64,000 nt of DNA, taken from contig OZ336887.1 of the NCBI GenBank assembly GCA_965287045.1, positions 30,876,001 to 30,940,000 of the forward strand. Reading direction: 5' to 3'. Below the pieces are notes generated by a model. It saw nothing but the letters and a program-made list of their open reading frames with translations. It was not told the DNA's origin and ran no database searches. Both the position numbers and the translations under genes were made by a program. This document shows, piece by piece, positions 9,390-53,859 of this stretch; the stretch's first letter is position 1; the number at the start of each line of letters is the position of its first letter. The stretch is from Carcharhinus amblyrhynchos (Eukaryota).

Positions 9390-10034
9390 TTAACAGGAAC
9401 ACTTGCACTCGGAAATGACTGGGTATTGGACAGGTATCCACGTGCAGTACTTAGGCTTTGACCATCCTTGGCAATACCACCTTAAGAAAGTCTTGCTGAT
9501 AGATTTGACAGGTTTACACAGCATCCCTTCAGGGAATGAACAGGACCTCTCGTTGTAACAGTTCCCTTCTTTAACAAACCGAGGCCAGAAGCGGCCTCCC
9601 AGGTCCTTCCAAGTGTACATCACCGGACAGTATGTGTAGGACCAAAGCCATTGCTGAAACTTCCTTCTGGCCTTTTTGCCCAACTTCATTTTCCTCCCAT
9701 AAGGGGTCTCAGACAAATCCAACCTCTTGATGTCGTTGGGCATGGCGCCCAAGGGTTTGAACCTGGAATTCGGGTCCCGGGACGGAGAATCGTCCAGTTG
9801 GGGCAGAGTGATGGACATGAAGTTGGGATCGAAGTGACTGCCGAGCTTCTTCCGCAAAGTCCGTTCGTCCAGATCGTTGTCCTTGGGGTCGTTGTCTGGG
9901 TCCGGGTGTTCGATAATGTCCACCACGGGCAAACTGTCACTGGGGACGGGCCGGAGGTGTAGATAAGGCTGGCAGAGTCCGTGCTGCAGTAGCAGCATGC
10001 AGAAACAGCTTAACATATACTGTGGCAGCTCCAT
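9390..10034 (-). CDS. nog2: Noggin-2, secreted BMP antagonist, single coding exon, 214 aa
   Basis: Intact ORF with a signal peptide (MELPQY...HGLC|QPYL), clip region RPVPSDSLPVVDIIEHPDP and basic heparin-binding patch KLGKKARRK. Cystine knot runs CPVMYTWKDLG...CSFPEGMLCKP...YPVISECKCSC. Motifs DLDERTLRKKLGS, LDLSETPYG and KTFLRWYCQGW match noggin2 rather than noggin1 as I recall them. Kozak context AAAACATGG. Confidence 0.95.
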   Translation of the reverse strand: MELPQYMLSCFCMLLLQHGLCQPYLHLRPVPSDSLPVVDIIEHPDPDNDPKDNDLDERTLRKKLGSHFDPNFMSITLPQLDDSPSRDPNSRFKPLGAMPNDIKRLDLSETPYGRKMKLGKKARRKFQQWLWSYTYCPVMYTWKDLGGRFWPRFVKEGNCYNERSCSFPEGMLCKPVKSISKTFLRWYCQGWSKPKYCTWIPVQYPVISECKCSC

Positions 10035-10067
10035 GTTTTAAACGGGCCAGTTCGCCGAGCCCAGAGG

Positions 10068-10636: not shown

Positions 10637-10825
10637 GCGCTGACTTTGTCCTCCCTCCTGCTGCTCCCGCACTGATGTCGAGGCTCAGGCTCCAGGTTAA
10701 ATATCCCTGTCCCGGAGAATTCCCGGGGCTGGCTCCTCGCTCCTGATTGACATCTTCCCCCGCCCTCCATCTGCTCCCACCCGCCTGAGCCTTCAAACTG
10801 CTTAATCCGCATCTTCCAGACTTCT

Positions 10826-11680
10826 GAAACCCCAAACCCGCAACCTCTTCACTCCCCACCCCCAAACCTGCATCCTCCCCACTCCTAAACTCCAAACCCG
10901 CACCCGTCTGGCTTCCCCACACAAACTCGAACTCGAACTCTCCCGACTCCTAAACCCCCAAACCTGAACCCGCCCGACTCCTAAATCACAAACCCACATT
11001 CTCCCCACTTCTAAACCCCAAGCCCGCACCCTCCCCACTCCTAAAGCCCAAACCCACATCCCGAGTCCTAAACCCCAAAACTGCACCCTCCTGCTTCCTA
11101 AACCCCAAACTCGTATCCTCCCCACTCCTAAACCCCAAACCCGAACCCTACTCACTCCCCAACTCCAAACCCAAATCCTCCTGCCTCCTGCCTCCTAAAC
11201 CCCCAAACACACACACCCTCCCAACTCCTAAACCCCAAACTCACACACTCCCAACTCCTAAACTCCAAACCCCATCCTCCTGACTCCTAAACCCCCAAAC
11301 ACATACCCTACTGACTCGTAAACTCCAAACCTACACCCTCCTGACTTCTAAACCCTCAAACCCACATTTTCCTGGCTCCCCAACATTAAAACCCACACCG
11401 TCCTGCCTCCTAAGCCCCCAAACCTGCACCTGCTCAACTCTGCTTCCTCCCAACATCTTCACCCATCCTCCAGTTCCCAAGTCTCCAAACAAGCATATTC
11501 CCAGCTCTAAACATGCACTCTCCTGGCTCCCAAAATCCACAGCCCCATTCTCTCACTCTCAAACCCCTAACATATACCATCCCAGAACCTCAGCTTCCCA
11601 GTTCCAAAAGCTTCAACAGCACTCTCCTGGCCCCCCAAAGGTTCAAACCTGCATCCTCCTAGATCTGAAATCCTTAAATC
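10826..11680. repeat. C-rich ~30-bp minisatellite (about ACTCCTAAACCCCAAACCCGCACCCTCCCC)
   Basis: Recurring ctcctaaaccccaaacc units at about 30-bp period, degenerating toward 11.7 kb. Confidence 0.9.
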
Positions 11681-12039: not shown

Positions 12040-15000
12040 CCAACAGAGTTAGTATCATAATTAATGTATTTGGTTATTTATGTTAATTTTAGTCAGTCTA
12101 ATAAATGGAGACATGGTAGATACCTCAGTCCCACAAAATGTGTATTCTGTTCCATGTGGGAACTCCAGGATGCTTCCCATGTCTTTGACAATCGCATGTG
12201 TAAGAAGTGGCATCAGCTGGAGAAGTTCAGGCCCCAGGTTTCAAAGCTGTAGCTGCAGCTGGCATCACTGCAATACATCTGGAGTCTGAGACTTCAATGA
12301 ATGTCAGGTTTTGGAAATGAATATCCCACAGCTCAACAGTACACAGACAGGGAGGGAATGAGTGACTGACTGTCAGACAGTTAAAGACAGCAAGGCAGGT
12401 AGTCCCCTGAGTGTAACTCTCCAACCGGTGTTCAGATTTGAATATTGATGAAGGCGATGGTTTATCTTGAACAAAGCCAAGTCCATGGCAACGTAGTTGG
12501 CACAGCAGTTCAAGACAGTCAGGAGGAAGATTAGAAAAGCAATTGTGATAGTGGATTCTATACTGAGGAGAACAAATAGTAATTTGAGGCATGACTCCAG
12601 CATGACATGTTACACCAGCTCGTTCCCCCTTAAGGAGGGAGGGTTTTAGATTCCTGCAACATTCAGATCTTTTTGGGGGAAGATGGACCTGTACGGACGT
12701 CAACTCAATAGAGTCAGGACCAATGTCCTCACAGGGAGGTTTGTTAGCTGTTGGGAAGGTGAATGAGGTTCAGGAGGAAGAATTCAAAAGGAAAAACAAG
12801 ATGCATAAAGAATTGGCAGAGGCAAATAACACTAAGATAAGAAATAATAAGATATTAAGTGCAACGAGAGTTGAAAGGAATACGGAAAGGTCTAAATTGG
12901 GTGTATAGTGGACTATACACTAGTATAGTCTGTCTATACTAAAGACTAGTAAATATGTTTTGTGGACCGCAGGTGCAAATAGCAGCTTGGGAATATGATT
13001 TTGTACCCATACTGGACACCTAGATCAAAAAGGGGCAGGAGAGACTACTAAATATTCCTGGATACAAGGTATTTAGGAAAGGTATGGAATGAAAGAAAGG
13101 AAGAGAATTGGTAATATTGATTAACTATTACAATGCTTGAGAGAAAAGAAGTCTTAGCAAGATCAAGGATAGAGTTAAGAAATATTACACCACTACACTA
13201 CGAAGTATATTCTATAAGACACTAACTGGGGGGGGGCAGACACAGAAGAGCAAGTTTGTAGAGAAATTGCTGAGAGGTGCAATAACTCTTACTAGAATTT
13301 GGGACTTAAATTATCCCAATGTTGAATGGGAAAATAACACAGTATGAAGGACAAAAATGGGGATGAATTTCTAAAGTATTTTCAGGAGGATTTTCTTGAT
13401 CACTGCATTTCTGGCCCAACGAGAAAGGTTGGATTCCATTTCTAGGGAATGAGCTGACTTGATTGGATCAAGTTCAGTTGGGGAATATTGAGGGAAGTGA
13501 TCATAATTTCTTTAGATTTAGATTAGCTAAAGAAAGCAATACAGAGTAAAAATAATTAATTGAGGACAGCTAATTTCAAAGGAATGAAAATTGATCTAAG
13601 AACATAAGAACATAAGAAATCGGAGCAGGAGTAGGCCATCTAGCCCTTCGAGCCTGCCCCGCCATTCAATAAGATCATGGCTGATCTGTCGTGGCTCAGT
13701 TCCACATTCCCGCCCTCTCCCCATAACCCTTAATCCCCTCGCTTATCAAAAACCCATCAACCCGCGTCTTAAAAATATTTAGCGAGGCAGCCTTCACCAC
13801 TTCAACGGGCAGAGAATTCCAGAGATTCACCACCCTTTGAGTGAAGAAGTTCCTCCTCAACTCCGTTCTAAACCGCCCCCCCTTTATTCTGAGGCTGTGC
13901 CCCCTAGTCCTACTGTCCTTTCTGAGCGGGAAGAGTCTCTCCACCTCTATCCTATCCATCCCATTCATCATCTTATACGTCTCAATGAGATCTCCCCTCA
14001 TTCTTCTAAACTCTAACGAGTACAAGCCTAGTTTATTCAGCCTCTCCTCATAGCTCAACCCCCTCAACTCCGGCATCAGCCTAGTAAACCTCCTCTGCAC
14101 TCCCTCCAAGGCCAAAATATCCTTGCGTAAGTGTGGCGACCAAAACTGCACACAATACTCCAGCTGCGGCCTCACCAATGCCCTATACAGCTGCAGCAAG
14201 ACCTCCCTACTTTTATATTCAATCCCCCTCGCTATGAAGACCAGCATCCCATTAGCCTTCCTGACCACCTGCTGCACCTGCAGGCTGGGTTTTTGCGACT
14301 CATGCACAAGGACCCCGAGGTCCCTCTGCACCGTCGCCTGCTGCAGTTTTTCGCCACGTAAGTAATAGTCCTTCCTACCATTATTCCTACCAAAGTGGAC
14401 CACCTCACACTTGCCAACATTAAATTCCATTTGCCAGTTCCTGGCCCATTCGCCCAGCCTATCTAGATCCTTCTGCAGACTCTCCACACCCTCCGCGCAA
14501 TTTGCCGTTCCACCAATCTTGGTGTCTTCAGCAAATTTCGACACCATACACTCAGTTCCCTCCTCCAGATCATCTATATAAATGGTAAATAGCTGAGGCC
14601 CCAGCACCGACCCCTGGGGCACTCCACTAGTCACCAACCACCAATCCGAATAGCACCCGTTAACCCCCACTCTCTGCCTCCTATTTGACAACCAGTCCTC
14701 TATCCACGCTAACACCCTACCCCCAATTCCATGCCCCCTTACCTTCTGCAATAACCTCTTGTGAGGTACCTTGTCAAACGCCTTCTGAAAGTCAAGAAAG
14801 ACCACATCCGCCGGCTCTCCTCTATCCACCACCCTAGACACATCCTCATAGAACTCCAATAAATTTGTCAGACACGACTTCCCCTTAATGAAACCGTGCT
14901 GTGTCTGCTCTATCAAGCAATTCCCCTCAAGATGCCTCGCTATTTCCTCCTTGATGACGGATTCTAACATTTTACCTACAACAGACGTTAAACTAACCGG

Positions 15001-16410
15001 CCTATAATTCCCTGCCTTTTGCCTGCCACCCTTCTTAAACAACGTTGTTTTAAGTAAATTGTAATTAAAGATTGCTGTCAAAATTATAATGGAACAATGG
15101 GCCTCCTTTGAAAAGGAGATGGTAAGGGACAGTCAAGGTAAACTTCCAAAAGAGGAAAATGTAGGGTCAGAGCCCTTTGGATGACAAAAAAAATGGAAAG
15201 GAGAGTAAGATGAACCAAAAAAAGGTTGAATATGACAGATAATATAGGTTAAAATCAGGCTGAATATGGGAAGTTCAGAGGGAAACAAGAAAAGGGGAAA
15301 GAAAGACAAAGATAGTATGAGAAGATCCTAGTAGCTAATACAAAAGGAAATCCAAAAATCTTCAAAAGACATATAAATAGTAAAAAGGTGATACTAAGAG
15401 CAGTAAGGCTGATTCGGGACCAAAAAGGAAATCATGCAAAGAGGCAAGGGCATGGCAGAGGCACTAAATGAATTCCATACAACTGTTTATGCCAAAAAAG
15501 ATGTTTCAAAGTTATAGTGAAAAAGGAGGTAATTGAGATACTAAAAATTGACAAAGAGGAGGTATCAGAAAGGATGAACTTGAAGTTGAGAAATCATCAG
15601 AACTGAATAGGATGCATCCAAAAATATTGAGAGGGGTTAGGGCAGAAAGTGAAGAGGCACTGGCCATAATCTTTCAATCCTCCTTAAACACATGGGTGGT
15701 GCTAGAGGACTGGAAAATTGAAAATGTTATATTTTTGTTCAAAATGCTCTAAGGATAAACCCAGCAGCTACAGGCCAGTCAGTTTAACCATGATGGTGGG
15801 AAAGCTCCTACAAACAATAATCTGGGACAAAATTAAGTCATTTGCACAAGTATGGATTAACCAACGAAAGCAAACATTGATTGGTTAAGGGAAAATCACG
15901 TTTAACTGACTTAATTTAGTTTTTGGTAAGCTAAGAGTGGTTTGATGAGGGTAACACTGTTGGTGTGGTGTACATGGGCTTCTAAAAATCAATGATTAAA
16001 TACTACTAAGTAGACCTGCCAGCAAAGTTGAGGTCCACGGACTATAAAGGTCTGTGACAAGATGGATATGAAGTTGGCTGAGTAGTAGGAAATAGGGAAC
16101 AGTGTAAATAGCTGCTTTTTCGACTAGAGAAAAGTATACAATCAGCTTCCCCAGGAACACTGCTTTCCTTAATATATATTACTAATATGGACTCGAATGT
16201 ACAGGGCACAATTTCAAAACTTTTATACGACATACATCTTGGAAGCATTGTGAATTTGAGGAGGATACAGATAAACTGCAACAGGTTATAGATAAGCTGA
16301 TGGAATTGACATTTGGCAGCTGAAATTTAATGCAGTGGACTTAAGTGGTACATTTTTGTATGAAGAATAAGGATAGACAAGCTAAAGGACACATTTCTAA
16401 AGTGGTCCAT
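12040..16410 (+). mobile_element. Old, near full-length degenerate CR1 LINE (ORF1 and ORF2 remnants), split by a younger CR1
   Basis: ORF1-like CSMWEL...CKKWHQLE. Endonuclease and RT remnants, including gaggactggaaaattgaaaatgtt and cagctacaggccagtcagtttaacc. Many stops. Confidence 0.75.
13598..15045 (-). mobile_element. Young 5'-truncated CR1 LINE with an uninterrupted RT frame (13696-15045)
   Basis: [34 protein letters not shown] and FAEDTK motifs; 3' (TTCTTATG)n tail; CpGs retained. Confidence 0.97.
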
Positions 16411-16849: not shown

Positions 16850-17350
16850 CTTAAAGGGAGCTTTACTCCATTTCTAACCCATATTGTACCTCTCTTGGAA
16901 GTGTTTAATGAAACAGCACTGTATATGGGGCTTTACTCCATGTCTAACCCATGTTGTACCTGTCTTGGAAATTTTGCTGAGACAGTGTAGAGGAAGCTTT
17001 ATTCTGTATCTAACTCATGTACCTGTCTTGAGCGCGTTTCCCGAGACAGTGTAGAGGGAGCTTTATTCCATACCTAACCAATGTTGTACCTGTCTTAGGA
17101 GTGTTTGATGATATAGTGTAGAGGGAGCTTTAATCTGTACTGGAATTTCTTTCCTCAAAAGATGATTGATTTAAGATCTTTGAATATCTTTAAGGTAGAA
17201 ATATATAAATTCTTGAAAAGCAAGAGGGTAGGGGCTTTTGGGGGTAGGCAAGAATGTGAAAATTAGATCAGCCATACTGTACCTGTCCTGACAGTATTTG
17301 ATGGGACAGTGGAGGGGAATCTTTACTCTATGTCTAACCTATGCTGCATC
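16850..17350 (-). repeat. ~68-bp tandem repeat, array 3, reverse orientation
   Basis: Repeated gagggagctttactctgtatctaaccc...gtacctg. A further short copy lies at about 26205-26300. Confidence 0.8.
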
Positions 17351-26010: not shown

Positions 26011-26309
26011 TCTGAAATTACCCAGATGTTCAAACTGCTGCGACAATAATACCTAGGTATCAATAACATCCATGCAGTATACACTACAGTGGCAATTTTC
26101 CCATCGCACCCACCACAGGAATCGTAGCGGGATGAGAGCAGACCTCAGGCGGGATTTTCAGGTTTTGGAGCAAGCACATCTAGAAAGTCCTGCCCTGCAT
26201 GTTCCATTAAACACTCCCAGGACAGATACAGCAGAGGTTAGATACAATATCCCATCAAAAACTTCTAGGGGAAGATACAGAATGGGTTAGATACAGAATA
26301 CTTAGTGCT

Positions 26310-27702: not shown

Positions 27703-29380
27703 CAGAAAAATGCTGGAAAATCTCAGCAGGTCTGACAGCATCTGTGGAGAGAGAGTAGAGCTAATGTTTTGAGTCTAGATGACCCTTCATCAGAGCTGAG
27801 AGAAAAGAGAGTCAGCAGAGATTTATACTATGAGTTAGGGAGGGGTGATGGAATTAGATAAAGGGAATGTAAATAAGCATGAAGAAGGCTGAGAAGTTGT
27901 TGAAAATGTCCATTAAGTGATCGGAGTGTGTTAATGGCAAAACAAAGGTACAACTTAGTAAAGGACTGCTTGAGGAATGTGGCAGTTGGCCTGAAGAAGG
28001 GGGGGGTGGGGGAAGGTGGAAAGGAGAGTGATAAAATGGAGGATAGATGAAATAAAGTAATATAAATGGAAATGGGGTGGAGGGGAAAGTTCATACACTG
28101 AAGCTGTTGAACTCAGTGTTCAGTCCGGAAGGCTGTAATGTGCTGAATTGGCAGATGAGGTGATGTTCCTCCAGCTTGTATTGGGGTTCTCTAGAACAGT
28201 GCAACAGGCCAAGGATGGACATGTGGGCAGGAAAGCAGGGTGGCCTGTTGAAGTGGCAAGCGACACGAAGGTCTGTATCCTGCTTGCAGATGAACCGAAC
28301 CGTTCAAAGCAGTCATGCTGTCTGTGAGGAGAGATTAAATAGACTGAGTCTGTACTCTGAGTTTAGAAGGATGAGGGGGGATCTTATAGAGACGTATAAG
28401 ATAATGAAAGGGATGGATAGGGTAGAGGTAGAGAGATTCTTCCTGCTCAAAAAGGACAGCAGGACTAGAGGGCACAGCCTCAAGATAAGGGAGGGACAGT
28501 TTAGAACGGAGTTGAGGAGGAACTTCTTCACTCAAAGGGTGGTGAATCTCTGGAATTCTCTGCCCGTTGAAGTGGTGGAGGCTACCTCGCTAAATATATT
28601 TAAGTCAAGGGTAGATAGGTTTTTGACAGACAAGGGAATTAAGGGTTATGGGGAGAAAGCGGGAAAGTGGAACTGAGCCACTTCAGATCAGCCATGATCT
28701 TATTGAATGGCGGGGCAGGCTCAAAGGGCTAGATGGCCTACTCCTGCTCCTATTTCTTATGTTCTTATGTGTTTAGTCATTCAATGTAGAGTAGACCGCA
28801 TTGGAAGCAGCAAATGCAAAACACCAAACTAAAGGAGATGCAGCTGCTTCACCTGGAAGGGGTGTTTAGGACTTTGGACACTGAACAGGGAGGAGGTAAA
28901 GGAGCAGGTGTTGCATCTTCTACAATTGCATGGGAAGGTGCAGTGGGCAGGGGGTGAGGTGTTGGGTGTGATGGAGGAGTGGACCAGGGTGTCCTGGAGA
29001 GAATGGTCCCTGTGGAATGCTGACAGGGATGGGGTGAAGGAAAGATGTGTTGGAGTTGGCGGAAATGACAGAGGGTGACTCTTTGTGTGCAGAGATGGTG
29101 AGTGAAAAATGAGGATAAGGGGGACTCTGTCCTGGTTCTGGGAGTGTGAAGAGGGGGTAGAGGGGGTGAGAGCAATGGCCTGGGGCGTGTGTTGGACATG
29201 GTTGAGGGGCCTGTGAACCACAGTGGGTAGAAAATTACGATTGAGGAAGAAGGAAGATATATCAGCTGTGCTAGTTTGGAAAGTGGCACCATCAGAACAG
29301 ATGCAGCAGAGGCGAAGAAACTGAAAGAATGGAATAGAGTCCTTACAGGATATGGAATGTGAAGAGCTGTAGTCAAGGTA
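27703..29380 (-). mobile_element. Penelope-like element, 3' part (RT thumb, Cys linker, GIY-YIG remnant, terminal repeat)
   Basis: YLDYSSSHSISCKDSIPFFQFLRLCCICSD, CTFPCNCRRCNTC and LVFCICCFQCGLLYI; decayed hammerhead at 27758-27797. The element continues at 38676-38822. Confidence 0.85.
28322..28770 (+). mobile_element. Young CR1 3' fragment inserted in the Penelope element
   Basis: EERLNRLSLYSEFRRMRGDLIETYKIMKG...FFTQRVVNLWNSLP; ttcttatgttcttatg tail; same subfamily as 13598 and 52491. Confidence 0.95.
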
Positions 29381-30283
29381 TGTTACAACACAGAGATTAA
29401 TCTCTTTACTTCGCTTCATAATATGCTACAATTATTTGGGAAGATGTTTTTTATTCTTAATTATCATTTAGAGGTTCACTAATACAAAGGCCTGACACTC
29501 GCTTTAAGTGAACAATTAACACAGTATTTTGTTTAAATAACCAGGAACTTTAACAAAACAAGTAACATATTAATTAAGGTACAGTTTGACTGAAATGCTG
29601 TTCAAATAATACAAGGAACATTCATTACCAATGCAGTAATAACGGAATTTGTCATTTTCAAAAGAAATATACAACCAGGTCTGATAGCTTTCAAAAATTT
29701 TGGAGTTCTTCGGTAGTTGTCCTCTCTCTATAAGTGCTGTCTGATTTGGTACATTTCGCTGGTTAGAAGGTTAGATGGCAGAGTTAAGAACCAACTGCTC
29801 CAGTTGATCTAACTGCCCTTAACTGCCTCAGTCAATCTAATTGCCCTGCTTCTGGTTGAACTCCTGGCTCAACACCTGGTGGGACTGAACAGAAGGAAGT
29901 TGAGTTCCTCTTTTATATTCCTGATGACCTATGCATTCTCTACATCAGGATTGGATTGATGCTGACAACAGCAGCAAATTCAAATCTAATAGGTTCCCTT
30001 TTAGCTGAGTGATTTCTTTAAACTCATAGGCTGTTAGCCTAGTGTCTTCTTTAAACTCGTAGGCTAACAAAATACAAAAACCTGCAGAGCAGGTTATCAA
30101 GGCCGATCTTGAGGCTTGGTGCTCAAAGCAAATGTTGCAACTAGTACTCTGCATTTTAAACATCTATGTTTTTGAAGACACTGATGCAACCAGCTTTTAA
30201 AAGGGACCAAGCATTGTTGTTTTCCCTCTAGTATTTTACATTCTTCACAGACATTCTGTTCACCTTTATAAACTAAATGTCAC
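29381..30283 (-). repeat. 3' LTR of the Gypsy element
   Basis: TGTTACAACA...TGTCA; colinear with 37763-38672 and visibly diverged from it. Confidence 0.9.
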
Positions 30284-30331
30284 CTCCCCCCTTCTGAAAA
30301 AATGAACCATCAACATGAAAAGATGGCTTCA

Positions 30332-30948
30332 TTTTAGTTTTTTCTTCTTCGATAGGAGCAATTTTTAATTACTTTGCAAGTCTGTACAAGAGATTTATTT
30401 TTAGTACTTTTAAACTTTTCTTCCTTGAACAGAGTCTTAATGATCACTTCCTTTTTGGTGTGCAGACATTCTTCATGACGTTTATGAGCTTCCTTGGTCT
30501 TGCAAGCTTCAGCCCGGTCAGCCAGTTTCTTCTTGCAAGTCTTGTCTGCCTTCAGTTTGTGAATGTGCTCCATCAAGAAATGCTTATTCTTGAAGACATT
30601 ATCCTTCACCTTCAGATACAGTTTGTGATACACGTAGCAATCAATCTCCTTGGACTCCCTGTATCCACAAAGCAGACGCCTCAGAATTCTCATTCTCAAC
30701 CAGGCTGCATGCGAACATTACCTGTACTCTTTTCGCTTACCGATGCTCATGTGCCAGCCCTTCCTTCATGCAAGGGTGTTCTTCCTGCATAGAACATGCA
30801 AATGTACAATCACAGGCTTGTGGATAATTAGACCATCTTTCATTAATTGATCTGTTGATGAAAATTGGCATTGGCAAACTCATTTGTTTCATTAGGATCC
30901 AGCCAGTCGGCCAGCCTCTTCTGAAGCCTAAACCTACTCATGGCCGCT
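30332..30948 (-). pseudogene. rpl19: Processed pseudogene of 60S ribosomal protein L19
   Basis: ATG at 30941: [81 protein letters not shown]. No introns; frameshifts, deletions and stops. ATTAAA at 30364-30369 and an A-rich tract at 30332-30349. Confidence 0.95.
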
Positions 30949-32297
30949 TTTCGACAGAACAGCTACTTGCCAGTACCCATGAAGTATGTCCAACTTTGTG
31001 TTGTAAGTATCTTGTCCTCCTTTTTCCATCTAATCTTCCAACTTCAGAATTGGATATGAGTCAGCTTTAGTTACTGCATTGACCTTTTGATAATCTACGC
31101 AGAACTGTTGAGTACCATCACTTGGACACGGTTCTATGATATCATTTTGTATCATCACTTCTACTTTCTTTTGAACCTGCCCTGCTTTGAGAGATTAAGC
31201 CAATAACAATGTTGTTTTTCAGAACAGCATTCCTTACGTCAACCTCATGTACTACAGTATTAGTCCTACCGACTATGTAAATGTAACATGGTTACTTCTG
31301 TAACAAGTCTTTCGATTCAGTGCTCTGATCTTGGGACAGAGAGTTCACTACTCTATTCCAGTCTTTAAGGACTTCATTATTTATTTTTAGATACATTAAA
31401 ATCCACATCACTGGAATTTGATTTCTCACTCTGAGTAGCAGTAGAGTGGAATTCATCACTCTGAGTGGCAGTAGGATTGGATTCCTCAGTTTGACTGGCT
31501 TTATGATATAAATCCTGTCTGTTGTAATTCCCTTAATTTTCCTGAACTAAACACATAAGCCTGCTTATGTTCTTCCCTTACCATTTCGTCAAACAGAGTG
31601 TCAGCTAAATGGACCTCAACTCCTTCATCTTTCTCTTTTGTTCTCTCTTCCTGTTTTAACTTGCGGCTCTGGGATCTTGTATATATAATTTCCATAAATA
31701 AACTGGATTCATAGAATAGCCAGAATTTCCATCACACCCACTATCACTTCCCCAGTCTTGATTGGACTCTAGTCTTATTTTACACAATGGAACACTGCTC
31801 CCTTCTCCATTTATTCCACTGATTACCCTTCTCTTGGGCAGTATTTCAGAAGGAGTGCAAAGATCCTCATCTCTAACTATTGGAGACAGACTAGCCCCCG
31901 TATCTCTCAATATTTTAACTTCTTTACCTAATTCCCCTCTTCTATCTAAGTAAACCTCACCCCACAGGTGAAGTCTTTGAAAAGATTAGACTCTCATCTT
32001 ATCATCCAGCCTGTGGCTAAGCTGTGCATTTGCCTTCAGCTCCTTGATTTCTCTCGGGATTGCTTTCACTACTTTAACTCGTCCCATTAGTTGAGCCCTT
32101 TTTACCACACCCTTTTACTCAGTGCCTTTCTTAAACCACCAGCACTGTAACTTTATGCGCCCCACCTAAATCACAGTGAAAACACCTGAGGCCCTTCACC
32201 TCTTTTCCATTCTCTTGGGTGTCTTTTTCACAGGGAATAAACTGTTCCCAGTGTGATCTACTTTTGGTTTTTCATTGAAGGATTTTCTTCTTTCCCT

Positions 32298-35200
32298 CAC
32301 TGACTTAAATGGCTGTCAGAACCATACCCCCAGTGCGACCTGCAACTTTTGTGGCAGGTCAAAGTGGGAGATGCACATCACTGGCCTTGCACCTGCACAT
32401 CTCCCACGGCTGGTGAATAGTCGCCAGTCAGACCATGCCGGAAACCGGTGGGAAGGCAGGTAAGTAATTTGAATCTTTTTAAAATGTATTTTAAATATGC
32501 TTAGCAGGTCATTATCAGGAACTTTCAGGTCCCGATCGAATCTTCCACCCTGCCAGGAGTACTTCATTCTGGCAGGGATCAAACTAGCTCCCCAAGTTCA
32601 GGGAACTAGTGGGACACCCTGCCGGAATGAAGGGGGGCAATCGGGGCCCCCAAGGGGCTCGGGAGGTGCATGATGGTGCTCCTGGGGCATGGGCACCCTG
32701 GCAGTGCCAGCCTGTGCCCATGAGCAGGGGGCACTTTGGCACTGCCCACTGGGCACAGGGCCTATTGTGGGCAAGGCTTAGGGGCAGTGGGGGTGGGGGA
32801 TCCCACTGCCACTTGCAGGTAAGATTGGTCAGGGCTGGAGGGAGGGCAGCGATTGAGGTGGGCTGAGGGGGGGGGATGGTCTGCTGGTGGGGGAGGGGAG
32901 GGGCCTGCCTCCCAGGGGTGTCTGACTCTGGGAGGGGAGTCAGCAAAGGGGGAGGGGGTCTGCAGGGGATCACCACTGCTGGCAGGGAGGTGGGATGTGC
33001 ATTGGGGCACTCTGATACTGGGGGAGGGTCCCAGGAATTGATGTGGGCACCACGATTGGGCCATGGGTGGGTGGGTGGGTGTGGGGGGGGGGAGGGGGGA
33101 GGCTGGAGGGGCAGCACTGCAAGTGTCAGGACCACTGGGCATGCACAGAGGGCCTTGATGTTTATGAGGAAGTTAGATGTGGTGGCAGTAACGGAGACGT
33201 GGTTAAGGGAAGGGCAGGACTGGCAGCTGAATGTTCCTGGGTATGTGTTTTAGGTGTGACAGAGGAGGGTTGAAGAGAGGTGGTGGGGTGGCACTGTTGG
33301 TAAAGGAGCACATCACAGCAGTGCAGAGGGAGGATAATATGGAGGAGTTAGGGATTGAGTCACTGTGGGTAGAGTTGAGGAATAAAAAGGGGGAGATTAC
33401 AATGCTAGGGGTATACTATAGGCCACCCAACAGCCCGAGGTCAGTGGAGGAAGGTATTTGCAGAGGCATTTTAGATAGGTGCAGAAAGAATAAGGTGGTT
33501 GTAGTGGGTGACTTTAATCTTCCTGGAGTGGATTGGAAGGTGCCTAGAGCTGGGGGTATGGATGGGGAGGAGTTTGTAAAATGTGTGCTGGAAGGGTCCC
33601 TGGAGCAGTACGTAACTAGCCCGACGAGGGAGGGGGCTATACTGGATTTAGTGTTGGGTAATGAGCCGGGGCAGGTGGTTGAGGTTGAGGTAGGCGAACA
33701 TGTGGCTAACAGTGATCACAAGTCCGTCTACTTTTGGATAAAAATGGAATGGGATGAGTGCCGTCCGAAGGGGAGGGTGCTGAACTGGGGGAAGGCGAGC
33801 TATAGCCGGATTAGGAGGGAGCTGAAGGACACTGATTGGGAGGGGTTGTTAGCGGGCAAGTCCACAGTTGGTAAGTGGGAGGCTTTCAAGGGCAAACTGA
33901 TAATGTTGCAGGAAAGGCATGTGCCGGCAAAGAGGAAGGATGGGAAAGGTAGGATTAGAGAGCCGTGGATTACAGGGGGTATCGAAGACTTGGTCAGGAA
34001 GAAGAGGGAGGCATATGTTAGGTCGAAACAACTGGGAACGGAGACTGCGCTGGAAGAATATAGAGAGAGTAGGAGGGAGCTTAAAAGGGGAGTTAGAAGG
34101 GCGAAAAGAGGGCATGAAATGGCTTTGGCTGATAGGATTAAGGAAAATCCAAAGGCATTTTACTCTTATATTAGGAGCAAGAGAGAGTGGTTAGAGGGAA
34201 AATTGGTCCTCTTAGGGACAAAGGAGGGGAGCTATGCATCGAGTCTGAGGGAATGGGGGAGATCCTGAATGAATACTTTGCGTCAGTGTTCACGACGGAG
34301 AGGGGTTTGGTGTCGTGTAATGTCTTGGAGGGAGCTGTAGATCAGTGGAAGGAAATATCCATCATGAGGGAGGAAGTGCTAAGGTTTTTAGGTAGCATAA
34401 AAACGGATAAAGCTCCAGGGCCTGATGGTATTTATCCCAGGCTGCTTAGGGAGGTGAAAGATGAAATTGCTGGGCCTCTGACGCAAATCTTTGTCTCTTC
34501 CTTGGACACAGGTGAGGTCCCAGAGGACTGGAGGGTAGCTAATGTGGTACCGCTGTTTAAAAAGGGTAGTAGGGATAACCCGGGTAATTATAGACCAGTG
34601 AGTTTGACATCGGTGGTAGGAAAATTATTGGAAAAAATTCTTAGGGATAGGATGTATGAGCATTTGGAGGGATACGCAACATGGCTTTGTTCGGGGGAGG
34701 TCTTGCCTTACGAATCCGGTAGAATCTTTCGAGGAGGTGACAAAAACGGTTGACGATGGGCGAACCGTTGATGTCATCTATATGGAATTCAGTAAGGCGT
34801 TTGATAAAGTCCCTCACGGTAGGCTGGTAGAAAAGGTTAAGGCACATGGGATACAAGGACAGGTAGCTAGGTGGATTGAAAACTGGCTGGGCAATAGGAG
34901 ACAGAGAGTAGTAGTGGAAGGGTCCTTTTCTGGCTGGAGGTCAGTCACCAGTGGTGTGCCGCAGGGCTCAGTACTGGGACCTCTCCTCTTTGTAGTATAT
35001 ATAAACGACTTGGAAGAGGGCGTACGTGGTGTGATCAGCAAGTCTGCGGATGGCACCAAGATGGCAGGATTGGCAGATACTGAGGAGGACTGTCAGGTGA
35101 CACAGCAGGATATAGATAGGTTGGTATATTGGGCAGATAGAATGTAATCCTGACAAATGCTAGGTGATGCATTTTGGAAGGAATAATGCAGGGAGGAGTT

Positions 35201-36570
35201 ACATGATAAAAGGTAGACCGATTAAGAGTATAGAAATACAGAAGGACCTGGGAGTGCAGGTGCACAAGTCTCTGAAGGTGTCAACACAGGTAGAGAAGGT
35301 TGTGAAGAAAGCTTATGGAATGCTAGCCTTTATAGGAAGGGGTATAGAGTATAAGAGCTGCCGTCTAATGCTTCAGTTGTACAGAACGCTGGTTAGGCCG
35401 CATTTGGAGTACTGCGTCCAGTTCTGGTCACCTTACTACCAGAAGGACGTGGAGACCCTGGAGAGGGTGCAGAGGAGGTTTACCAGGATGTTGCCTGGCA
35501 TGGAAGGACTGAGTTACAAGGAAAGGTTGGAGAAACTGGGGCTCTTCTCCTTAGAAAGACGGAGATTAAGGGGGGGATCTGATAGAGGTGTATAAAATAA
35601 TGAAGGGAATAGATAGAGTCAACAGTGGTAGGCTTTTCCCTAGATTGGGGATAATTACGAGAGGTCACGATCTAAGAGTGAGGGGGGAGAAGTATAATTT
35701 GGATACTAGAGGAAGGTTTTTCACTCAGAGGGTCGTGGGGGTATGGAACGCGCTACCAAGTAAGGTGGTGGAGGCAGGCACGTTGAACTTGTTTAAGGTT
35801 TACTTAGATAGACACGAGTGAAACAGGGATGGAGGGCTATAGAAGACGGTATTAAAAAGGGTCAGAGCCTCGGGACGACACCGGAAAAGTAGTATTACGT
35901 GTTAATGTTTTGACTCTTTTAATCCACAGGCGTCGGTCCACCTTGTTGTCAAACAAGGGGCATGCACACGGTGGGTCATGTGTGGGCTGCTCTTGGAGAT
36001 TTTGAGAGTGGCCTAGTACTTCATGTCGTTGTGCGCGCTTAACCCTGGACCAGCAGACGGGCACCACAACAGCTCAGTGACTATCAATCACTGCTAGCTG
36101 TGCAGATACATGGATTTGGGGCTGTGTCTGTGGGAGTTTGCGCATTCTCCCTGTGGTTGCGTGGGTTTCCTCCGGGTGCTCCGGTTTCCTCCCACACCCC
36201 AAAGATTTGCTCTTAGGCTGATTGGTGTACCAAATTGACCCTACACTATTCTCCCCTGAATCTGGCTACATTAGGGGTTCCACTCACATACACACAGGAC
36301 AGGGTAGGTGTAGGAAAATGCTTTGTTGAAAAGGCGGCGCGGGCTCGTTGGGCCGAAGGGCCTGTTTCCCGTGCTGGGTTGTTCTTTGTTCAGAGTTCCA
36401 GAACTGTCAAACTCTGGTGTGAATAGGTCCCACCCCCCTGGGTTTTTAATGATATTCATCATTGGAAACTCTACAATGCACGGAGTGCGGGTGAGAAGCT
36501 GAACTGACCAAACAGTCGGAAATTCAAACAGTTTTCCTGCCAATTCAGCAGTTTTGGGAAAATCCACCAA
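32298..36570. mobile_element. GC-rich non-autonomous element inserted in Gypsy gag and split by the CR1 (pieces 32298-33150 and 36391-36570)
   Basis: Abrupt GC shift inside gag with ggcagtgcc/gggcac motifs; gag reading resumes on both sides. Family not determined. Confidence 0.5.
33151..36390 (+). mobile_element. CR1 LINE with near-complete ORF2 (APE endonuclease + RT, frameshifted) and a V-SINE-containing 3' end
   Basis: DVVAVTETWL, GVYYRPP, VGDFN, LDLVL, SDH, KAPGPDG, NYRPVSLTS and [10 protein letters not shown] motifs. CAGAG duplicated at 33146-33150 and 36391-36395. Confidence 0.92.
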
Positions 36571-37762
36571 ATCTTCAAAATTTCAATTTATGCGCTAATG
36601 CGTAATCATCCACCATCTCTGCAGCTTTTCTCACTGTCTTAACTTTCTGTTCCTCAACAGGAATTCTGAAAGTGAGTTTTTGAATTCCTCTCTCATACAT
36701 CTTTTCAATCTTTCTAATTTCTATAGGCTATTGAGTTGGATGATCAGCCATGATCGTGATGAATGGCAGAGCAGGCTCAAAGGGCTCCTGCTCCTATCTT
36801 CTATGTTTCTACATAATGCTCTCACTCATTTATCAAAGTTGTTCTGCTTAACTCTTTCACACTCAATTCATGGCTGATCTGGTTCCTTCCTCACATTTAT
36901 GAAACTTTGGTTTGTTTCTGGTACCAGTTCGTAAGCACTCAAAAGAGCTTTCTTTACTTCTTCATACTTTCCTGACATCTCTACCATGACTGCCAACACC
37001 TCAGTAGCCCTGCCTACCAACTTGTTCTGAACATATCCTCTGGCAGTTTCATCTGTGTAGCCAATTTCTCAAAGGATGTGAAAAAGGCTTCTGCGTCCTT
37101 CTCATCGAATTTTGGTAATGTCTGGACATATTTATATATACCTTTACCAGGCGATGCTGGTAAAGGTGAGTCTATGCTGAGTCTGCTCATTATCACTTCT
37201 ATCTAGTACTCTTTCTCCTATCATTTGAAGTCGTCTTTTTCCATTTCCAACTTTTTCTTTTCTAAGTCAAACAATTTTCTCTTTCCCTTTCTTCTGTTAG
37301 GGCCTACCTGTCTCTTTCCTTTTCTCTTTCTTCACTCCAGCCTTTCAATTTCATTTTCTAACTCCAATTTCTTTATTTGTAATTTTTTTTCTAATTCCAA
37401 TACACTTGACTGTTTTTCTGCTAGACTCAAGTGCCTGACTAACCCTTTTATAATTTCAACTTTCTTATTCTCCCTTGTTATACCCACTTTTAGCTTGTTT
37501 GCTAATTCTACAAGTGTTGTCTTTTTCTGTTTTTCTAATGTTTCTTGGCAAATTTGGGAAGCATCGTCGATCGCCAAAACCACTTTCACAATATTAAGAT
37601 CCATTTCCTCCCTTAGGTTTATTTTAAAGATTTAAGACTGTTTAAATCCCTCACTTAGGGTTGATTTAAAGATTTAAAACTCTTCAGATCCAGGACATAA
37701 GGATCTTGGGTTGTTCAAATCTCATGTAGGACTGTTCAGATCCAGAACATGAACTCCCAATC

Positions 37763-38672
37763 TATTACAACACAAAGATTAATTCCTGTTACCTCACGTC
37801 GTAATATGACACAATTATTTGGGAAAGTGTTGTCTGTTCTTAATTAATGTTTAGAGGTTCATTAATATAAAGGCCTCATACTCACTTTAAGTGAATAATT
37901 AACAAGGTATTTTATTTAAATAACCAGGAACTTTAATTAACAAGAAACATATTAATTAAAGCACAGTTCAAATGAAATGCTATTCAAATAATACAAGGAA
38001 CATTCATTACCAAAGCAGTAATAACAGAATTTTAGTCATTCTCAAAGAAAATGTACAACCAAAGTCTTACAGCATTCAAAAGCTTTGGAGTTCTTTGGTA
38101 GTTGTCCGCTGTAAGTACTGTCTAATTTGGTACATTTCGCTGGTTAGAGGGTGAGTTATCTTAGGACCTATCTGAAGCTGGCAGAGTTAAGAACCAACCG
38201 CTCCAGTTGATCTAACTACCATTAACTGCTTCAGTTAACGTAATTGCTCTGCTTCTGGTTGAACTCCTGGCTGAACCCCTGGTGGAACTGAACTGAAGGC
38301 AGCTGAATTTGTCTTTTATATTCCTGATGACTATGCATTCCCTAGATCAGGACTGGATTGATGCTGACAAGAACAGCAAACTCAAATCTGATAGCTGAGT
38401 GTTTTCTTTAAACTCAAAGGCTGTTAGCTAAGTTTCTTCTTTAAACTCATAGGCTAACAAAATGCAAAAGCCTGCAGAGCCAATTCCAAGGCAACCCTTG
38501 AAAGGTATTCAAAAGAAATGTTGCAATTTAAGAGTCTGTTTGTACTCTGAATTTTAAACATCTCAACATTGAACAAAATCAGCTTTTGGAGTGACTACAC
38601 ACTGTTGTTTCTCCTCAAGCATTTTACACTCTTTACAGACATTCTGTACATCTTTATAAACTCAATTTCACA
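37763..38672 (-). repeat. 5' LTR of the Gypsy element
   Basis: TATTACAACA...TTTCACA. The adjacent minus-strand TGGGAGTTCATGTTCTGGAT may be a decayed tRNA-Pro-type PBS. Confidence 0.9.
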
Positions 38673-38675
38673 AAT

Positions 38676-38822
38676 AAGGTAGTTGTGGGAGTGTAGTGGA
38701 TACTGGTAGACAGGTTATCACCAGAAATGGAGACACAGAGGTCAAAGAAGGAAGAGATGTGTCGGAGATGGACCATGTGAAGGTGATAGAGGGGTGGAAA
38801 TTGGAAGCAAAATTGATAAATC
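38676..38822 (-). mobile_element. Continuation of the Penelope RT beyond the Gypsy insertion
   Basis: Minus strand reads FINFASNFHPSITFTWSISD...FDLCVSISGD, contiguous with YLDYSSSH. Confidence 0.8.
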
Positions 38823-39649
38823 TTTTTCTAGTTTAAAGTCCAGCCTTCAGATCATTAATCCAGGTCCCTGGATTATTAGTGCAATAATATAATCACTGTT
38901 CTACCACACGCCAACTTAGTTGGCTCAATATAAGTTGTTTAAAATCAGCATATGTTCCAAAGTGATGGTAGGATGAAGAAATGGTTACCATATTGCTAAT
39001 GTACAAGAAAGTGAAGCTGTTAATGAAAATGAAAATATGGAAGGAAGGAAAGAGCATCATAGTCTCCTCCATGAATGAAATCCATTTAACAGACAAGGTC
39101 TCCTATATTTGCACAAATTCACAGGCAAAATTATGAAGTTTGTCCTCAGCAGAGGGATAGGCATGGTGCCCTGCAGCACACAAAAGGATATTGGCTGAGA
39201 ACCTGAAGTGGAAAATAAATGGTTGGGCAATAGACAAAGAGCAAGAGATTGGGATTAAGTGGATAGCTCTGCTTAAGATCTGGCACAGGCATGATGGGTT
39301 GAATGGCTTCCTATGCAATAGCATTCAACAATTCTATAATCAGTGCCCCTGCAAGAGGACTCAGTTACCACCAACATTATATTGTGGCTGCAAAATGCAT
39401 AACCCAGATCATGCACAGCACCAACTCAAACACCAAAGTTACGGCAACTCCATTTTCCAGTTGTAAAAACTCTATCACTAAGAAGGACAAGCTTTGCAAT
39501 ATTGTGAGAATGCTGTTAAATGCCAGTTATTCTCCCTGTCACAGGCTGGAAAAATATCAGTGTTATTTCATTGTCATTGTCAGAATCTTGGAGTGTGGGA
39601 ATGCATTTCATGCAAAGACTGCAACAATTCTAGAAGGCAGCTTGCCACT

Positions 39650-40180
39650 ACCATATGAACGTGGAAAATAGGAGTAGGTCATTCAACATTTCAAGTCTAT
39701 TCGGCCTTTCAATATGATTGTGGCTGATCCTCAAACTCAACATCACACAGCTGTGCTCTCTTCATACCCCTTGACATTCTCAGAGTCTAGAAATCTATTT
39801 CCTTCTTCAATATATTCAGTGACTTGGCCTTCACAGCTTTACATAGTAGAGTATCCCACAGGTTCATCACCCTTTGAATGAAGACATTTCTCCTCATTTC
39901 AGTCCTAAATGGCCTACCCTGAATCCTGAGACTGTTACCCCCTTGTTCTAAACCCCCTCAGATAGAAAAAACAACATTTCTGGATCCAGTCTGCCTTAAT
40001 CTGTCAGAATTTTATACATTTGAATTGGATGCTCTCTCATTCTTCTAAATTCCAGTTAGTGCAGGCCCAATTGAATCAATCTGGTGAACCTTTGCTGCAC
40101 TCCCTCTATGGCAAGTAGATCGAATCTTAGATAACCAAGGTCCTGTACAGCTACAGTAACATCCTTAGTCCTGCATTTTC
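39650..40180 (-). mobile_element. CR1 3' fragment
   Basis: ataggagtaggtcattcaa tail; ttcatcaccctttgaatgaagacatttctcctc. Confidence 0.75.
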
Positions 40181-52460: not shown

Positions 52461-52490
52461 ACAGATAGGGAGACTAGGTCACAAGCAATG

Positions 52491-53232
52491 AACATAAGGA
52501 CATAAGAAATAGGAGCAGGAGTAGGCCATCTAGCCCTTCGAATCTGCCCCACCATTCAATAAGATCATGGCTGATCTGAAGTGGATAAGTTCCACTTACC
52601 CACCTGCTCCCCATAACCCCTAATTCCCTCATCTATCAGAAATCTATCTACCCGTGACTTAAACATATTCAACGAGGTAGCCTCCACCACTTCGATGGGA
52701 AGAGAATTCCAGAGATTCACCACCTTCAGAGAAGTTCCTCCTCAACTCTGTTCTAAACTGCACCCCCTCCCCCCACCTTATTTTGAGGCTGTGCCCTCTA
52801 GTTCTGGTTTCCTTTCTAAGTGGAAAGAATCTCTCTACCTCTACGCTATCTAGCCCCTTCATTATCTTGCAAGTCTCTATAAGATCCCCCCTCAGCCTTC
52901 TAAATGCCAATGAGTATAGATCCAGCCTATTTAATCTCTCCTCATAAAAGCTAACCCCCTCATCTCTGGTATCAGCCTGGTGAACCTTCTCTGTACTCCC
53001 TCCAAGGCCAATACATCCTTTCACAAATAAGGGGACCAAACCTGCATATAGTACTCCAGTTGTGGCCTCGCTAGTGCCTTGTACAGTTGCAGCAAGACCT
53101 CCCTGCTTTTATATTCTATCCCCCTTGCTATAAAGGCTAATATTCTATTTGCTTTCTTGATCACCTGCTGCACCTGCAGACTGAGTTTTTGTGATTCGTG
53201 CACAAGGACCCCCAGGTCCCCCTGCACAGTAG
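52491..53232 (-). mobile_element. Young CR1 3' fragment
   Basis: QGDLGVLVHESQKLSLQVQQVIKKANRILAFIARG; cataaga tail. Confidence 0.95.
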
Positions 53233-53859
53233 CAATGGTTTAAAGCAGACAAAAATTTAGATGATACGTAAGAGAAACAGGAAAGACATGACCAATAACA
53301 GATTAACTGGTTTTCTGGTCCTGAATTTGTGTGTGGGTGTTTTCTGTTCTCAGGCTTCTTAAGTTGACTGAAATGCCAGGTTAAAGTGAGCATGGATCCA
53401 GTTCAAGAAGCTCTGCTCTGTCCGAAGCAATATTTCACTTTTGGTTGTCTGTTTATATATTTATTTTGTTTCCATGGAACAGGTAAGTATCTCGTCAATC
53501 ACATATTTCCAAACACAAGGGAAGAGGGGCCAAGGTAGAACCTTCTTTCAGCCTCCTATTGCTCTGGGATCATCTTATTGCTTGTTTGCTAAGAACATCT
53601 GACTGATGGGCACAAGGATCCATCTTGCAAGCCCAGAAATGTCCATATAAAAACCTGTGCCTTCGTGATCTAGATAGCATTCTTCTGGAGAACAATGGCC
53701 AACTGACTGTTGTGGTTTTGTTACTCTTGGATTTGGGGTAAAGATAAACTTTATTGCTTAAAAAAACCTAAACTATCTCAAAGCTATTAATTACTTCTAG
53801 CATTTTTATAAATTTTAAAACTACGTACTTATAATTAAATTTTCTTTTCAAAAAAAATG

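Follow-up and report, generated by a model that had tools for sequence, protein, structure and literature searches.

Retrocopies of host mRNAs made by LTR retrotransposons are an already known phenomenon, published across animals by Tan et al. 2016 (PMC5131818), zebrafish Gypsy elements and mouse Rplp0 included. Its cases include fly BLASTOPIA chimeras, zebrafish Gypsy164/Gypsy-115, mouse retro-Rplp0 in ORR1A3 and human FAM8A1 in HERVK14. In the same paper, 15 of 15 fly cases lack poly(A), and Table S8 lists 20 LTR-class retrocopies from vertebrates, every one of them 3′-truncated by at least 66 nt; its 11 mouse and human rows were pre-filtered to lack L1 hallmarks. The Gmr1 clade of Ty3/Gypsy carries its integrase upstream of the RT (PMC8220671). 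Among LINEs, CR1 is dominant in the whale shark (PMC8455134) and is thought to be poor at mobilising mRNAs (PMC5470649).

The window, by which we mean the whole 64-kb stretch of DNA analysed here and which is free of Ns, contains a single Gypsy element of Gmr1-like layout at positions 29381-38672 on the minus strand, with two LTRs of 0.9 kb each. Its ends are formed by the following features:

38676..38681, minus strand: upstream copy of the host-site duplication (5-6 bp; chance 0.2% as a 6-mer or 0.8% as a 5-mer)
37763..38672, minus strand: 5′ LTR, about 910 bp, from the LTR-LTR comparison
37740..37762, minus strand: PBS-like tract directly adjoining the 5′ LTR, from the sequence
30284..30294, minus strand: polypurine tract (PPT), from the sequence
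29381..30283, minus strand: 3′ LTR, 903 bp, ending in CA and starting without a clean TG, from the LTR-LTR comparison
29375..29380, minus strand: downstream copy of the host-site duplication, pairing with 38676..38681

The two LTRs share 78.8% BLAST identity over 939 columns, with a K2P distance of 0.162 (866 aligned sites; 79 transitions and 46 transversions). The whole 9.3-kb unit is one insertion, bounded by the host-site duplication (chance 0.2-0.8%); three to four unexplained nucleotides separate the upstream copy of the duplication from the TG of the LTR. The host repeat at the insertion site, which may be Penelope-like, has no match in Pfam or Atlas. The PBS-like tract may resemble a tRNA-Pro primer site; Rfam returned no matches in 28000-40000, and ARAGORN likewise gave no match. 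LTRs, a PBS-like tract, PPT, target-site duplication (TSD) and Gypsy-type RT together mark the unit as a Ty3/Gypsy LTR retrotransposon.

Inside the LTRs we found decayed coding remnants and an insert that splits gag:

36578..37604, minus strand: 5′ part of gag, decayed (stops, frameshifts), matching the Gag/SCAN region of relatives
32316..36575, plus strand: nested insert of about 4.26 kb (ends approximate), recognised by Pfam Exo_endo_phos_2 and RVT_1, with GC-rich repeat DNA as a further component
about 33150-35900, strand opposite to the element: 5′-truncated CR1-type LINE (endonuclease and RT) within the nested insert, from Pfam
near 36116-36210: SINE-like piece within the nested insert
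31990..32315, minus strand: 3′ part of gag, decayed zinc-knuckle region (read by eye), matching P0102 residues 1-31
31734..31985, minus strand: aspartic protease remnant (ILRDTGAS), from tblastn to intact relatives
31381..31516, minus strand: integrase deletion site, where residues 240-697 of the relative P0251 are reduced to about 135 nt, including a 30-bp repeat present three times
30964..31381, minus strand: pre-RT linker and RT N-terminus up to GYWQV, with one internal 12-codon deletion and one stop

The LTR pair and these homologies confirm the minus-strand order of LTR, gag, protease and RT start that an earlier note on this DNA had claimed. The deletion which the note placed after the protease is also real, with the correction that what was lost is the integrase of a Gmr1-type layout, which the note had not recognised as such. 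The RT remnant is Ty3 RT (E 7e-6). Its nearest relatives are arranged as Gag(SCAN)-PR-IN-RT-RNase H, and the remnants in the window are colinear with them. As the integrase itself is deleted, the Gmr1 order is seen here via colinear linkers and relatives only, and the label Gmr1-type is based on layout, with no named Gmr1 reference among the matches. The RT-alignment search for long relatives (467-2000 aa) yielded echinoderm, mollusc and teleost elements among the 120 matches listed, none of them a named shark member. The protease remnant has no Pfam match, and when it was used as a query for longer relatives none of 82 candidates scored. Among conserved RT columns, 5/43 to 9/76 have decayed (p about 0.12 ± 0.04), which is too noisy to bear on a non-autonomous history. 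The integrase may have been lost before or after the insertion. The nested LINE/SINE insert, overlooked in the earlier note, is probably later than the element; a TSD around 32316..36575 was looked for and none was found.

Between the RT remnant and the PPT lies a copy of RPL19:

30942..30963, minus strand: 5′ junction zone, 22 nt, not RT-like
30396..30941, minus strand: processed RPL19 pseudogene, whole coding span, intronless, frameshifted and in a frame that differs from that of the RT
30351..30395, minus strand: probable RPL19 3′ UTR, with ATTAAA at 30369-30364
30332..30350, minus strand: A-rich tract, 14 of 19 A, 13 nt past ATTAAA, forming the 3′ junction
30295..30331, minus strand: 37-nt segment between the A-rich tract and the PPT, probably the element's own 3′ untranslated part

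Pfam identifies the copy by L19e_C (E 9e-13) and L19e (E 7e-4), and 96 of 98 candidates scored in the RPL19 search. Codons 1-196 of bowfin RPL19 align from 30941 to 30397 with no intron-sized gaps; vertebrate gene models break at codons ~38, 79 and 156 (P0018, P0011-P0013, P0077), which fits conserved introns. Judged by these gene models of other vertebrates, the parent's introns appear to be absent, as in a processed pseudogene. The intronless RPL19 in the orientation of the element, as first described, is thus upheld by Pfam, the bowfin alignment and the sense direction, but with five deletions, a single 1-nt insertion, and the resulting frameshifts as well as stops, it has lost its coding capacity, and it bears no sign of selection. 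An AATAAA at 30399-30394 overlaps the probable RPL19 stop. The A-rich tract may be decayed poly(A), the element's own A-rich landing site, or both.

To date the copy against the LTRs, we used as proxies for the parent the bowfin RPL19 and those non-degenerate sites that do not vary among six named vertebrates. The resulting RPL19 K of 0.095 (24/270 sites; CI 0.058-0.136), or 0.082 (19/246) without Arg codons, is an upper bound because bowfin was used for the parent. Half the LTR-LTR divergence, K/2, is 0.082 (CI 0.068-0.096), and the ratio of the two is 1.17 (0.71-1.78), or 1.00 (0.57-1.60) without Arg codons. Since RPL19 K matches LTR K/2, the copy is about as old as the LTR pair and the insertion, within a wide interval that leaves room for a copy about 40% younger than the LTRs. 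Indel densities are alike (6 in about 550 nt of RPL19 versus 13-20 in about 870 LTR columns, which represent two lineages). A retrocopy much younger than the LTRs, which in the earlier note would have refuted capture, is not what we observed (ratio 1.0-1.2, CI about 0.6-1.8). Nor does the locus look like a chimeric join of an LTR element and RPL19 made during assembly, an explanation we consider close to negligible: RPL19 shows the same kind of decay as the sequence around it, about 8-10% plus indels, it is properly enclosed by the LTRs and the host-site duplication, and the window has no Ns.

Similarity to RT codons stops at GYWQV (30964), and the following 22 nt score no better than chance (matched by 296 of 1000 shuffles, against 0 of 1000 for the control), so RT codons running through the junction were rejected. 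As the 22 nt do not score as RT, they are probably the RPL19 5′ leader. The earlier claim that no spacer separates the two needs slight amending: 22 nt of non-RT sequence lie between RT and the RPL19 ATG, and the residues AVLS are not RT. The distance of some 40 nt claimed from the A-rich tract to the PPT and 3′ LTR is correct, at 37 nt, with the PPT at 30294-30284. We detected no RT or pol-end residues 3′ of RPL19 (53/300 and 161/200 shuffles as good); an RT resuming past the tail and a pol C-terminus hidden between RPL19 and the PPT were both rejected as not above chance. The fold of a hairpin before the PPT (30295..30331) is not above shuffles either (z -0.56). Relatives run 320-322 aa beyond GYWQ (8 of 12 named relatives, where the motif was found by script), and a profile of the post-GYWQ RT/RNase H found nothing in the 64-kb window (best iE 6), from which some 313 codons of RT/RNase H are absent. 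As had been claimed, the rest of RT and RNase H is missing where RPL19 sits: pol is replaced, and not merely interrupted, by RPL19.

The claimed absence of a TSD around the retrocopy holds in the sense that no significant one is present. A weak TSD-like repeat (30959-30947 versus 30357-30344, 11 of 14 columns) is within chance, with 619 of 5000 shuffles and 1399 of 4326 empirical window pairs as good. It precedes the main A-tract rather than following it and has no RT sequence after it; pairwise decay of about 16% could blur a real short TSD into such a weak repeat. Absence of a TSD together with loss of target is also predicted if RPL19 cDNA patched a double-strand break with a deletion in the integrated element (RT-product-mediated repair), without template switching in a particle, and capture of spliced mRNA cDNA at breaks has been shown in mouse zygotes (PMC4516963). 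We nevertheless judge this route very improbable: it predicts neither the sense orientation, nor the complete message, nor an age equal to that of the LTRs, and it has been demonstrated mainly at induced breaks.

More has to be said for a LINE-made processed pseudogene, inserted by target-primed reverse transcription (L1/Tx1/CR1-type) into the already integrated element. Some 1 kb of pol would have been lost either at insertion (target-site deletion) or through a later deletion extending from the tail to an A-rich site close to the PPT. The mRNA appears to be full-length and ends in an A-rich tail, L1 processed pseudogenes derive most often from ribosomal-protein mRNAs, and L1 target-site deletions give a like geometry, in which the tail lies at an A-rich site, target is lost on the 5′ side and no TSD is formed (PMC4859970). 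There is also a weak TSD-like repeat, the element carries further nested insertions besides a large deletion, and cartilaginous fishes are rich in retrocopies (14,081), with vertebrate counts tracking non-LTR content according to a preprint. Furthermore, all 20 vertebrate LTR-class retrocopies in Table S8 (PMC5131818) are 3′-truncated, whereas RPL19 apparently reaches its tail; these truncations make the alternative, which the earlier note allowed for on account of the A-rich tract, stronger than was implied there. Set against it, the large deletion must end exactly at the tail, the insertion is needed soon after the arrival of the LTR element (age ratio about 1), the sense orientation is left to chance, and the TSD-like repeat is within chance, lies before the main A-tract and lacks RT sequence after it. 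A TSD with the target continuing on both sides, as expected of this process, is not seen, for the RT does not resume and no significant TSD exists. On balance we regard a LINE origin as unlikely, though credible.

The best reading, and in our judgement probably the correct one, is capture of RPL19 by LTR-mediated template switching, with a retrocopy that either was dead before it arrived or died as it did so. It is favoured by a pol that is discontinuous exactly at the retrocopy, the sense orientation, the lack of a significant TSD and the match in age; by the retention of both LTRs and the PPT inside one host-site duplication; by precedent (PMC5131818); and by the dominance of CR1, thought to be a poor mobiliser of mRNAs, in the whale shark genome. 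Counting against it, a complete coding span together with a 3′ UTR and an A-rich tail is typical of LINE-made copies, and the element lost more than 1 kb elsewhere (integrase), so a later loss of pol is possible. Under capture, a particle formed by a Gmr1-type Gypsy element would have packaged an RPL19 mRNA as well. While synthesising the minus strand, the RT would have passed through U3, the PPT and some 40 nt at the 3′ end of the element, switched at the A-rich stretch onto the poly(A) tail of the RPL19 mRNA, followed this short message as far as its 5′ end and then returned to the element RNA within the RT gene, exchanging at least about 0.95 kb of RT/RNase H for about 0.63 kb of RPL19. Gag-Pol from an intact RNA would then have integrated the LTR-to-LTR product, once.

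Of the earlier proposal, the LTR-retrocopy-LTR chimera is the part best supported (single insertion, age match), while nothing supports its extension to a once-mobile non-autonomous family carrying RPL19. RPL19 has not clearly decayed more than the LTR clock predicts, an RPL19/L19e domain occurs in none of the 120 long RT relatives listed (a weak test), each of 43 named RPL19 matches has at most 4 of the 25 differences that separate the copy from bowfin, and the 64-kb window holds one copy of the chimera. A bolder reading, which we consider improbable, is that in cartilaginous fishes Gmr1-type Gypsy elements take up whole mRNAs with their poly(A), the switch occurring at oligo(A) immediately before the PPT and the return at the mRNA 5′ end, and that the RPL19 chimera gave rise to a non-autonomous family that did not last long. 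If this were true, some of the full-length retrocopies with tails that are now credited to LINEs in shark genomes dominated by CR1 would be LTR-made, and the ‘no poly(A)’ rule would undercount LTR-mediated retrocopies.

As a lone dead locus, with RPL19 broken and out of frame with the RT, the copy matters little by itself. With it, the range of LTR-mediated retroposition would come to include a Gmr1-type element and, presumably, a cartilaginous fish, for neither of which we found a report in the open-access literature. Its unusual trait is an apparently complete tailed message inside an LTR element, which current criteria would call LINE-made, and a genome-wide tally of such tailed cases would probe the origin of retrocopies in CR1-rich genomes.

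Compared with the Gmr1 clade, the integrase and most of RT/RNase H are missing here, and the defining order is seen via flanking linkers only. With LINE-1-type pseudogenes that carry a target-site deletion (PMC4859970) the locus shares a spliced complete ribosomal-protein mRNA, an A-rich tail, lack of a TSD and target loss on the 5′ side; unlike them, RPL19 is in sense, sits between RT and PPT and matches the LTR pair in age. When retroviruses capture host RNA by template switching (reviewed in PMC4997597), the process similarly patches a co-packaged host RNA into the reverse transcript, but here the vehicle is a non-infectious retrotransposon and the cargo has no function. The closest likeness in kind is to the retrocopies of Tan et al. 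(PMC5131818): a host mRNA copy replaces part of an internal ORF with both LTRs of the same element kept on either side, the ORF gap exceeds 20 bp, the copy is at least as old as the insertion (wide interval), and no significant TSD surrounds RPL19, though decay could mask a short one. Microsimilarity at the switch points is the key hallmark of such capture, and a codon profile used as a proxy for it gave no signal either way. Rplp0 provides a ribosomal-protein precedent, and the A-rich switch-back site reported for BLASTOPIA may have a counterpart in the A-rich tract at the RPL19 3′ junction. Unlike those 3′-truncated cases without poly(A), RPL19 is apparently full-length with an A-rich tail (the 14/19 tract, if a true tail, departs from their ‘no poly(A)’ criterion), and the host is a Gmr1-type element in what is presumably a cartilaginous fish, outside the species surveyed in that study, with a copy that is old and dead.

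The RPL19-bearing feature is real, and the 9.3-kb LTR-to-LTR unit that holds it is one insertion, because the 6 nt directly past the 3′ LTR reappear 3 nt ahead of the 5′ LTR (a flank match expected between random pairs at 0.2% for a 6-mer or 0.8% for a 5-mer) and both flanks look like adjoining pieces of one decayed reading frame. An assembly artefact is hardly credible. The LTRs are 78.8% identical (BLAST), with 79 transitions and 46 transversions over 866 aligned sites, giving a K2P distance of 0.162 (0.160–0.173 across five gap settings).

Features of the element (window coordinates)
38672–37763, minus: 5′ LTR, direct repeat, ~0.9 kb
directly after the 5′ LTR, minus: putative PBS-like tract, primer tRNA unconfirmed
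37604–36578, minus: gag, 5′ part
36575–32316: nested composite insert, ~4.26 kb, containing an oppositely oriented CR1-type LINE (Pfam matches to endonuclease and RVT_1)
about 32315–31990, minus: gag, 3′ part
31985–31734, minus: protease
to 31516, minus: linker after protease
from 31381, minus: pre-RT linker
to 30964, minus: RT start
30294–30284, minus: PPT, abutting the 3′ LTR
30283–29381, minus: 3′ LTR, direct repeat, ~0.9 kb

The insert that splits gag, which the earlier note did not mention, combines the LINE, which lies in GC-rich repeat DNA, with a SINE-like piece; neither a TSD nor a terminal inverted repeat was found for it. The leader past the PBS (37583–37750) carries 42–52-bp tandem repeats that include PBS-like words. 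The host repeat at the insertion site (28830–29380 and 38673–38810, minus strand), presumably Penelope-like, is open for 183 aa, which include a CNCxxCxxC motif, and has no Pfam or Atlas match. Elsewhere in the window, an intact single-ORF noggin gene, which we take to be noggin2, lies ~19 kb from the element (9390–10037, minus strand; Pfam Noggin E 3e-101), with a 30-bp C-rich minisatellite of ~20 degenerate units just upstream (10804–11440). Arrays of 67-bp units are dispersed on both strands (757–1006, 5183–5531, 6333–6513, 16852–17333, 26200–26300). Several CR1-type LINE 3′ fragments also occur, at 13596–15132, 28322–28776, 52490–53233 and 61967–62647, and in one of them RT stays free of stops for 478 codons.

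The RT fragment matches Ty3 RT (E 7e-6) and 6164 library proteins at E ≤0.001. Long protein relatives (P0169, P0211 and others) are ordered Gag(SCAN)-protease-integrase-RT-RNase H, the order that defines the Gmr1 clade (excerpt of PMC8220671), and all the gag, protease, linker and RT remnants are colinear with them. Only ~135 nt stand for residues 240–697 of the relative P0251, the integrase position in this layout; the deletion previously noticed ahead of RT is thus real, and the lost part can now be named as integrase. A 30-bp tandem repeat in three copies (31421–31510) at this deletion may belong natively to the linker or be deletion-related. RT-RNase H is the last module ahead of the PPT; a script given 16 relatives found GYWQ in 12, all named, and in 8 of these pol ends 320–322 residues past the motif. 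A profile of pol past GYWQ drew no match from the 64-kb window (best iE 6): ~313 codons of RT/RNase H are missing where RPL19 sits. The closest RT relatives (P0102, P0103 and P0182; 58–68% identity) are short gene models that seem decayed, and in P0103 the RT piece continues into an unrelated low-complexity tail.

Pfam and homologue searches identify the passenger as RPL19, in sense orientation relative to the element, frameshifted, with stops and out of frame with RT. As the earlier note had read it, the copy is intronless: codon-aware alignment to bowfin RPL19, our stand-in for the parent, extends from the ATG (30941) as far as 30397 without a gap of intron size; it is interrupted by five deletions (30, 4, 10, 3 and 6 nt) and a single inserted nucleotide, a C-terminal difference of 9 nt being left out of the count. 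Other vertebrates' gene models break near codons 38, 79 and 156, consistent with conserved introns that the copy lacks.

RT codon similarity stops at 30964. The direct RT–RPL19 adjacency reported earlier needs a small correction, as 22 nt of non-RT-like sequence precede the ATG (RT score no better than shuffles, 296/1000, as against 0/1000 for the preceding 8 codons). These 22 nt are probably mRNA leader, which suggests that nothing is missing from the copy's 5′ end. On the 3′ side come ~45 nt with ATTAAA, 13 nt further an A tract (14/19 A), then 37 nt and the PPT, with no pol sequence detectable between RPL19 and PPT. A parse that puts AATAAA at the stop, shortens the UTR and takes 30959–30947/30357–30344 as TSD gained no support: RT does not resume past 30357–30344, and the repeat was matched by 619 and 617 of 5000 shuffles and 1399 of 4326 empirical pairs. 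The best repeat around the retrocopy is therefore not above chance, in line with the earlier reading, though a genuine short TSD might have been obscured by decay.

Because RPL19 hardly varies, substitutions at its non-degenerate sites can serve as a clock. Counted in columns where six named vertebrates all agree, 24 of 270 such sites have changed (K 0.095, CI 0.058–0.136), an upper bound because bowfin, not the true parent, is the reference; without Arg codons the count is 19/246 (K 0.082). Half of the LTR divergence is 0.082 (0.068–0.096). The ratio is 1.17 (0.71–1.78), or 1.00 (0.57–1.60) without Arg codons, with wide intervals and possibly different mutation rates in coding DNA and AT-rich LTRs. 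Indel densities also agree. RT decay (p ~0.12 ± 0.04) is compatible but too imprecise to discriminate. The copy therefore decayed about neutrally over roughly the lifetime of the insertion, which argues against selection on it, against a long prior life in a non-autonomous family and against a much later RPL19 insertion, the age gap that the earlier note had named as counter-evidence.

The replaced pol, sense orientation, retained LTRs and PPT, single insertion and matched age make the template-switch chimera proposed earlier the best reading: the feature is probably an LTR-mediated retrocopy, and two in-particle switches followed by one integration are its likely origin (our grading of mechanisms is judgement, not computation). 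RPL19 mRNA would have been co-packaged in the element's particle; a first switch may have led to the poly(A) tail from A-rich sequence immediately ahead of the PPT, and a second may have returned synthesis from the mRNA 5′ end to the RT gene, sites and order being presumed, with the product integrating once. Poly(A) at capture junctions has precedents in yeast Ty1 and avian retroviruses. The substantial, if rather unlikely, competitor is a processed pseudogene made by a LINE, with sequence deleted at the target site or later. It would account for a complete message with a tail, whereas the LTR-class cases of Tan et al. (15/15 fly, 20/20 vertebrate; mouse and human rows pre-filtered against L1 hallmarks) are tail-less or 3′-truncated; target-site deletions produce the same geometry (excerpt of PMC4859970), the element lost >1 kb elsewhere too, and a preprint, as excerpted, counts 14,081 retrocopies in cartilaginous fishes and ties retrocopy numbers to non-LTR content (10.64898/2026.06.26.734816). 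The LINE model requires, however, that a deletion end at the tail, that the insertion come early and that the orientation be right, and CR1, the dominant whale shark LINE (excerpt of PMC8455134), is thought a poor mobiliser of mRNAs (excerpt of PMC5470649), though the preprint attributes non-mammal retrocopies to CR1 or Tx1. Break repair by cDNA (excerpt of PMC4516963) is very improbable.

We see no evidence that the chimera was mobilised as a family. The window holds one copy; an L19e domain occurs in 0 of 120 long RT relatives among the matches listed, a weak test; and of the 25 differences that separate the copy from bowfin, none of the 43 named among 96 RPL19 matches shares more than 4. 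That Gmr1-type elements of cartilaginous fishes capture complete tailed mRNAs, this chimera having amplified as a short-lived non-autonomous family, is doubtful. Judged by titles and abstract openings, the open-access literature yielded no shark or RPL19 case, and the excerpts of PMC13320880, PMC6191304 and PMC5454406 hold nothing decisive. Retroviral capture of host RNA is reviewed in PMC4997597 (excerpt), and the cases of Tan et al. (2016, PMC5131818) include zebrafish Gypsy cases, the ribosomal-protein retro-Rplp0 and re-mobilised fly chimeras. Next to these, the RPL19 retrocopy is dead, of an already published type and, as far as seen, a single copy; it is unusual only in its apparently complete, tailed message.
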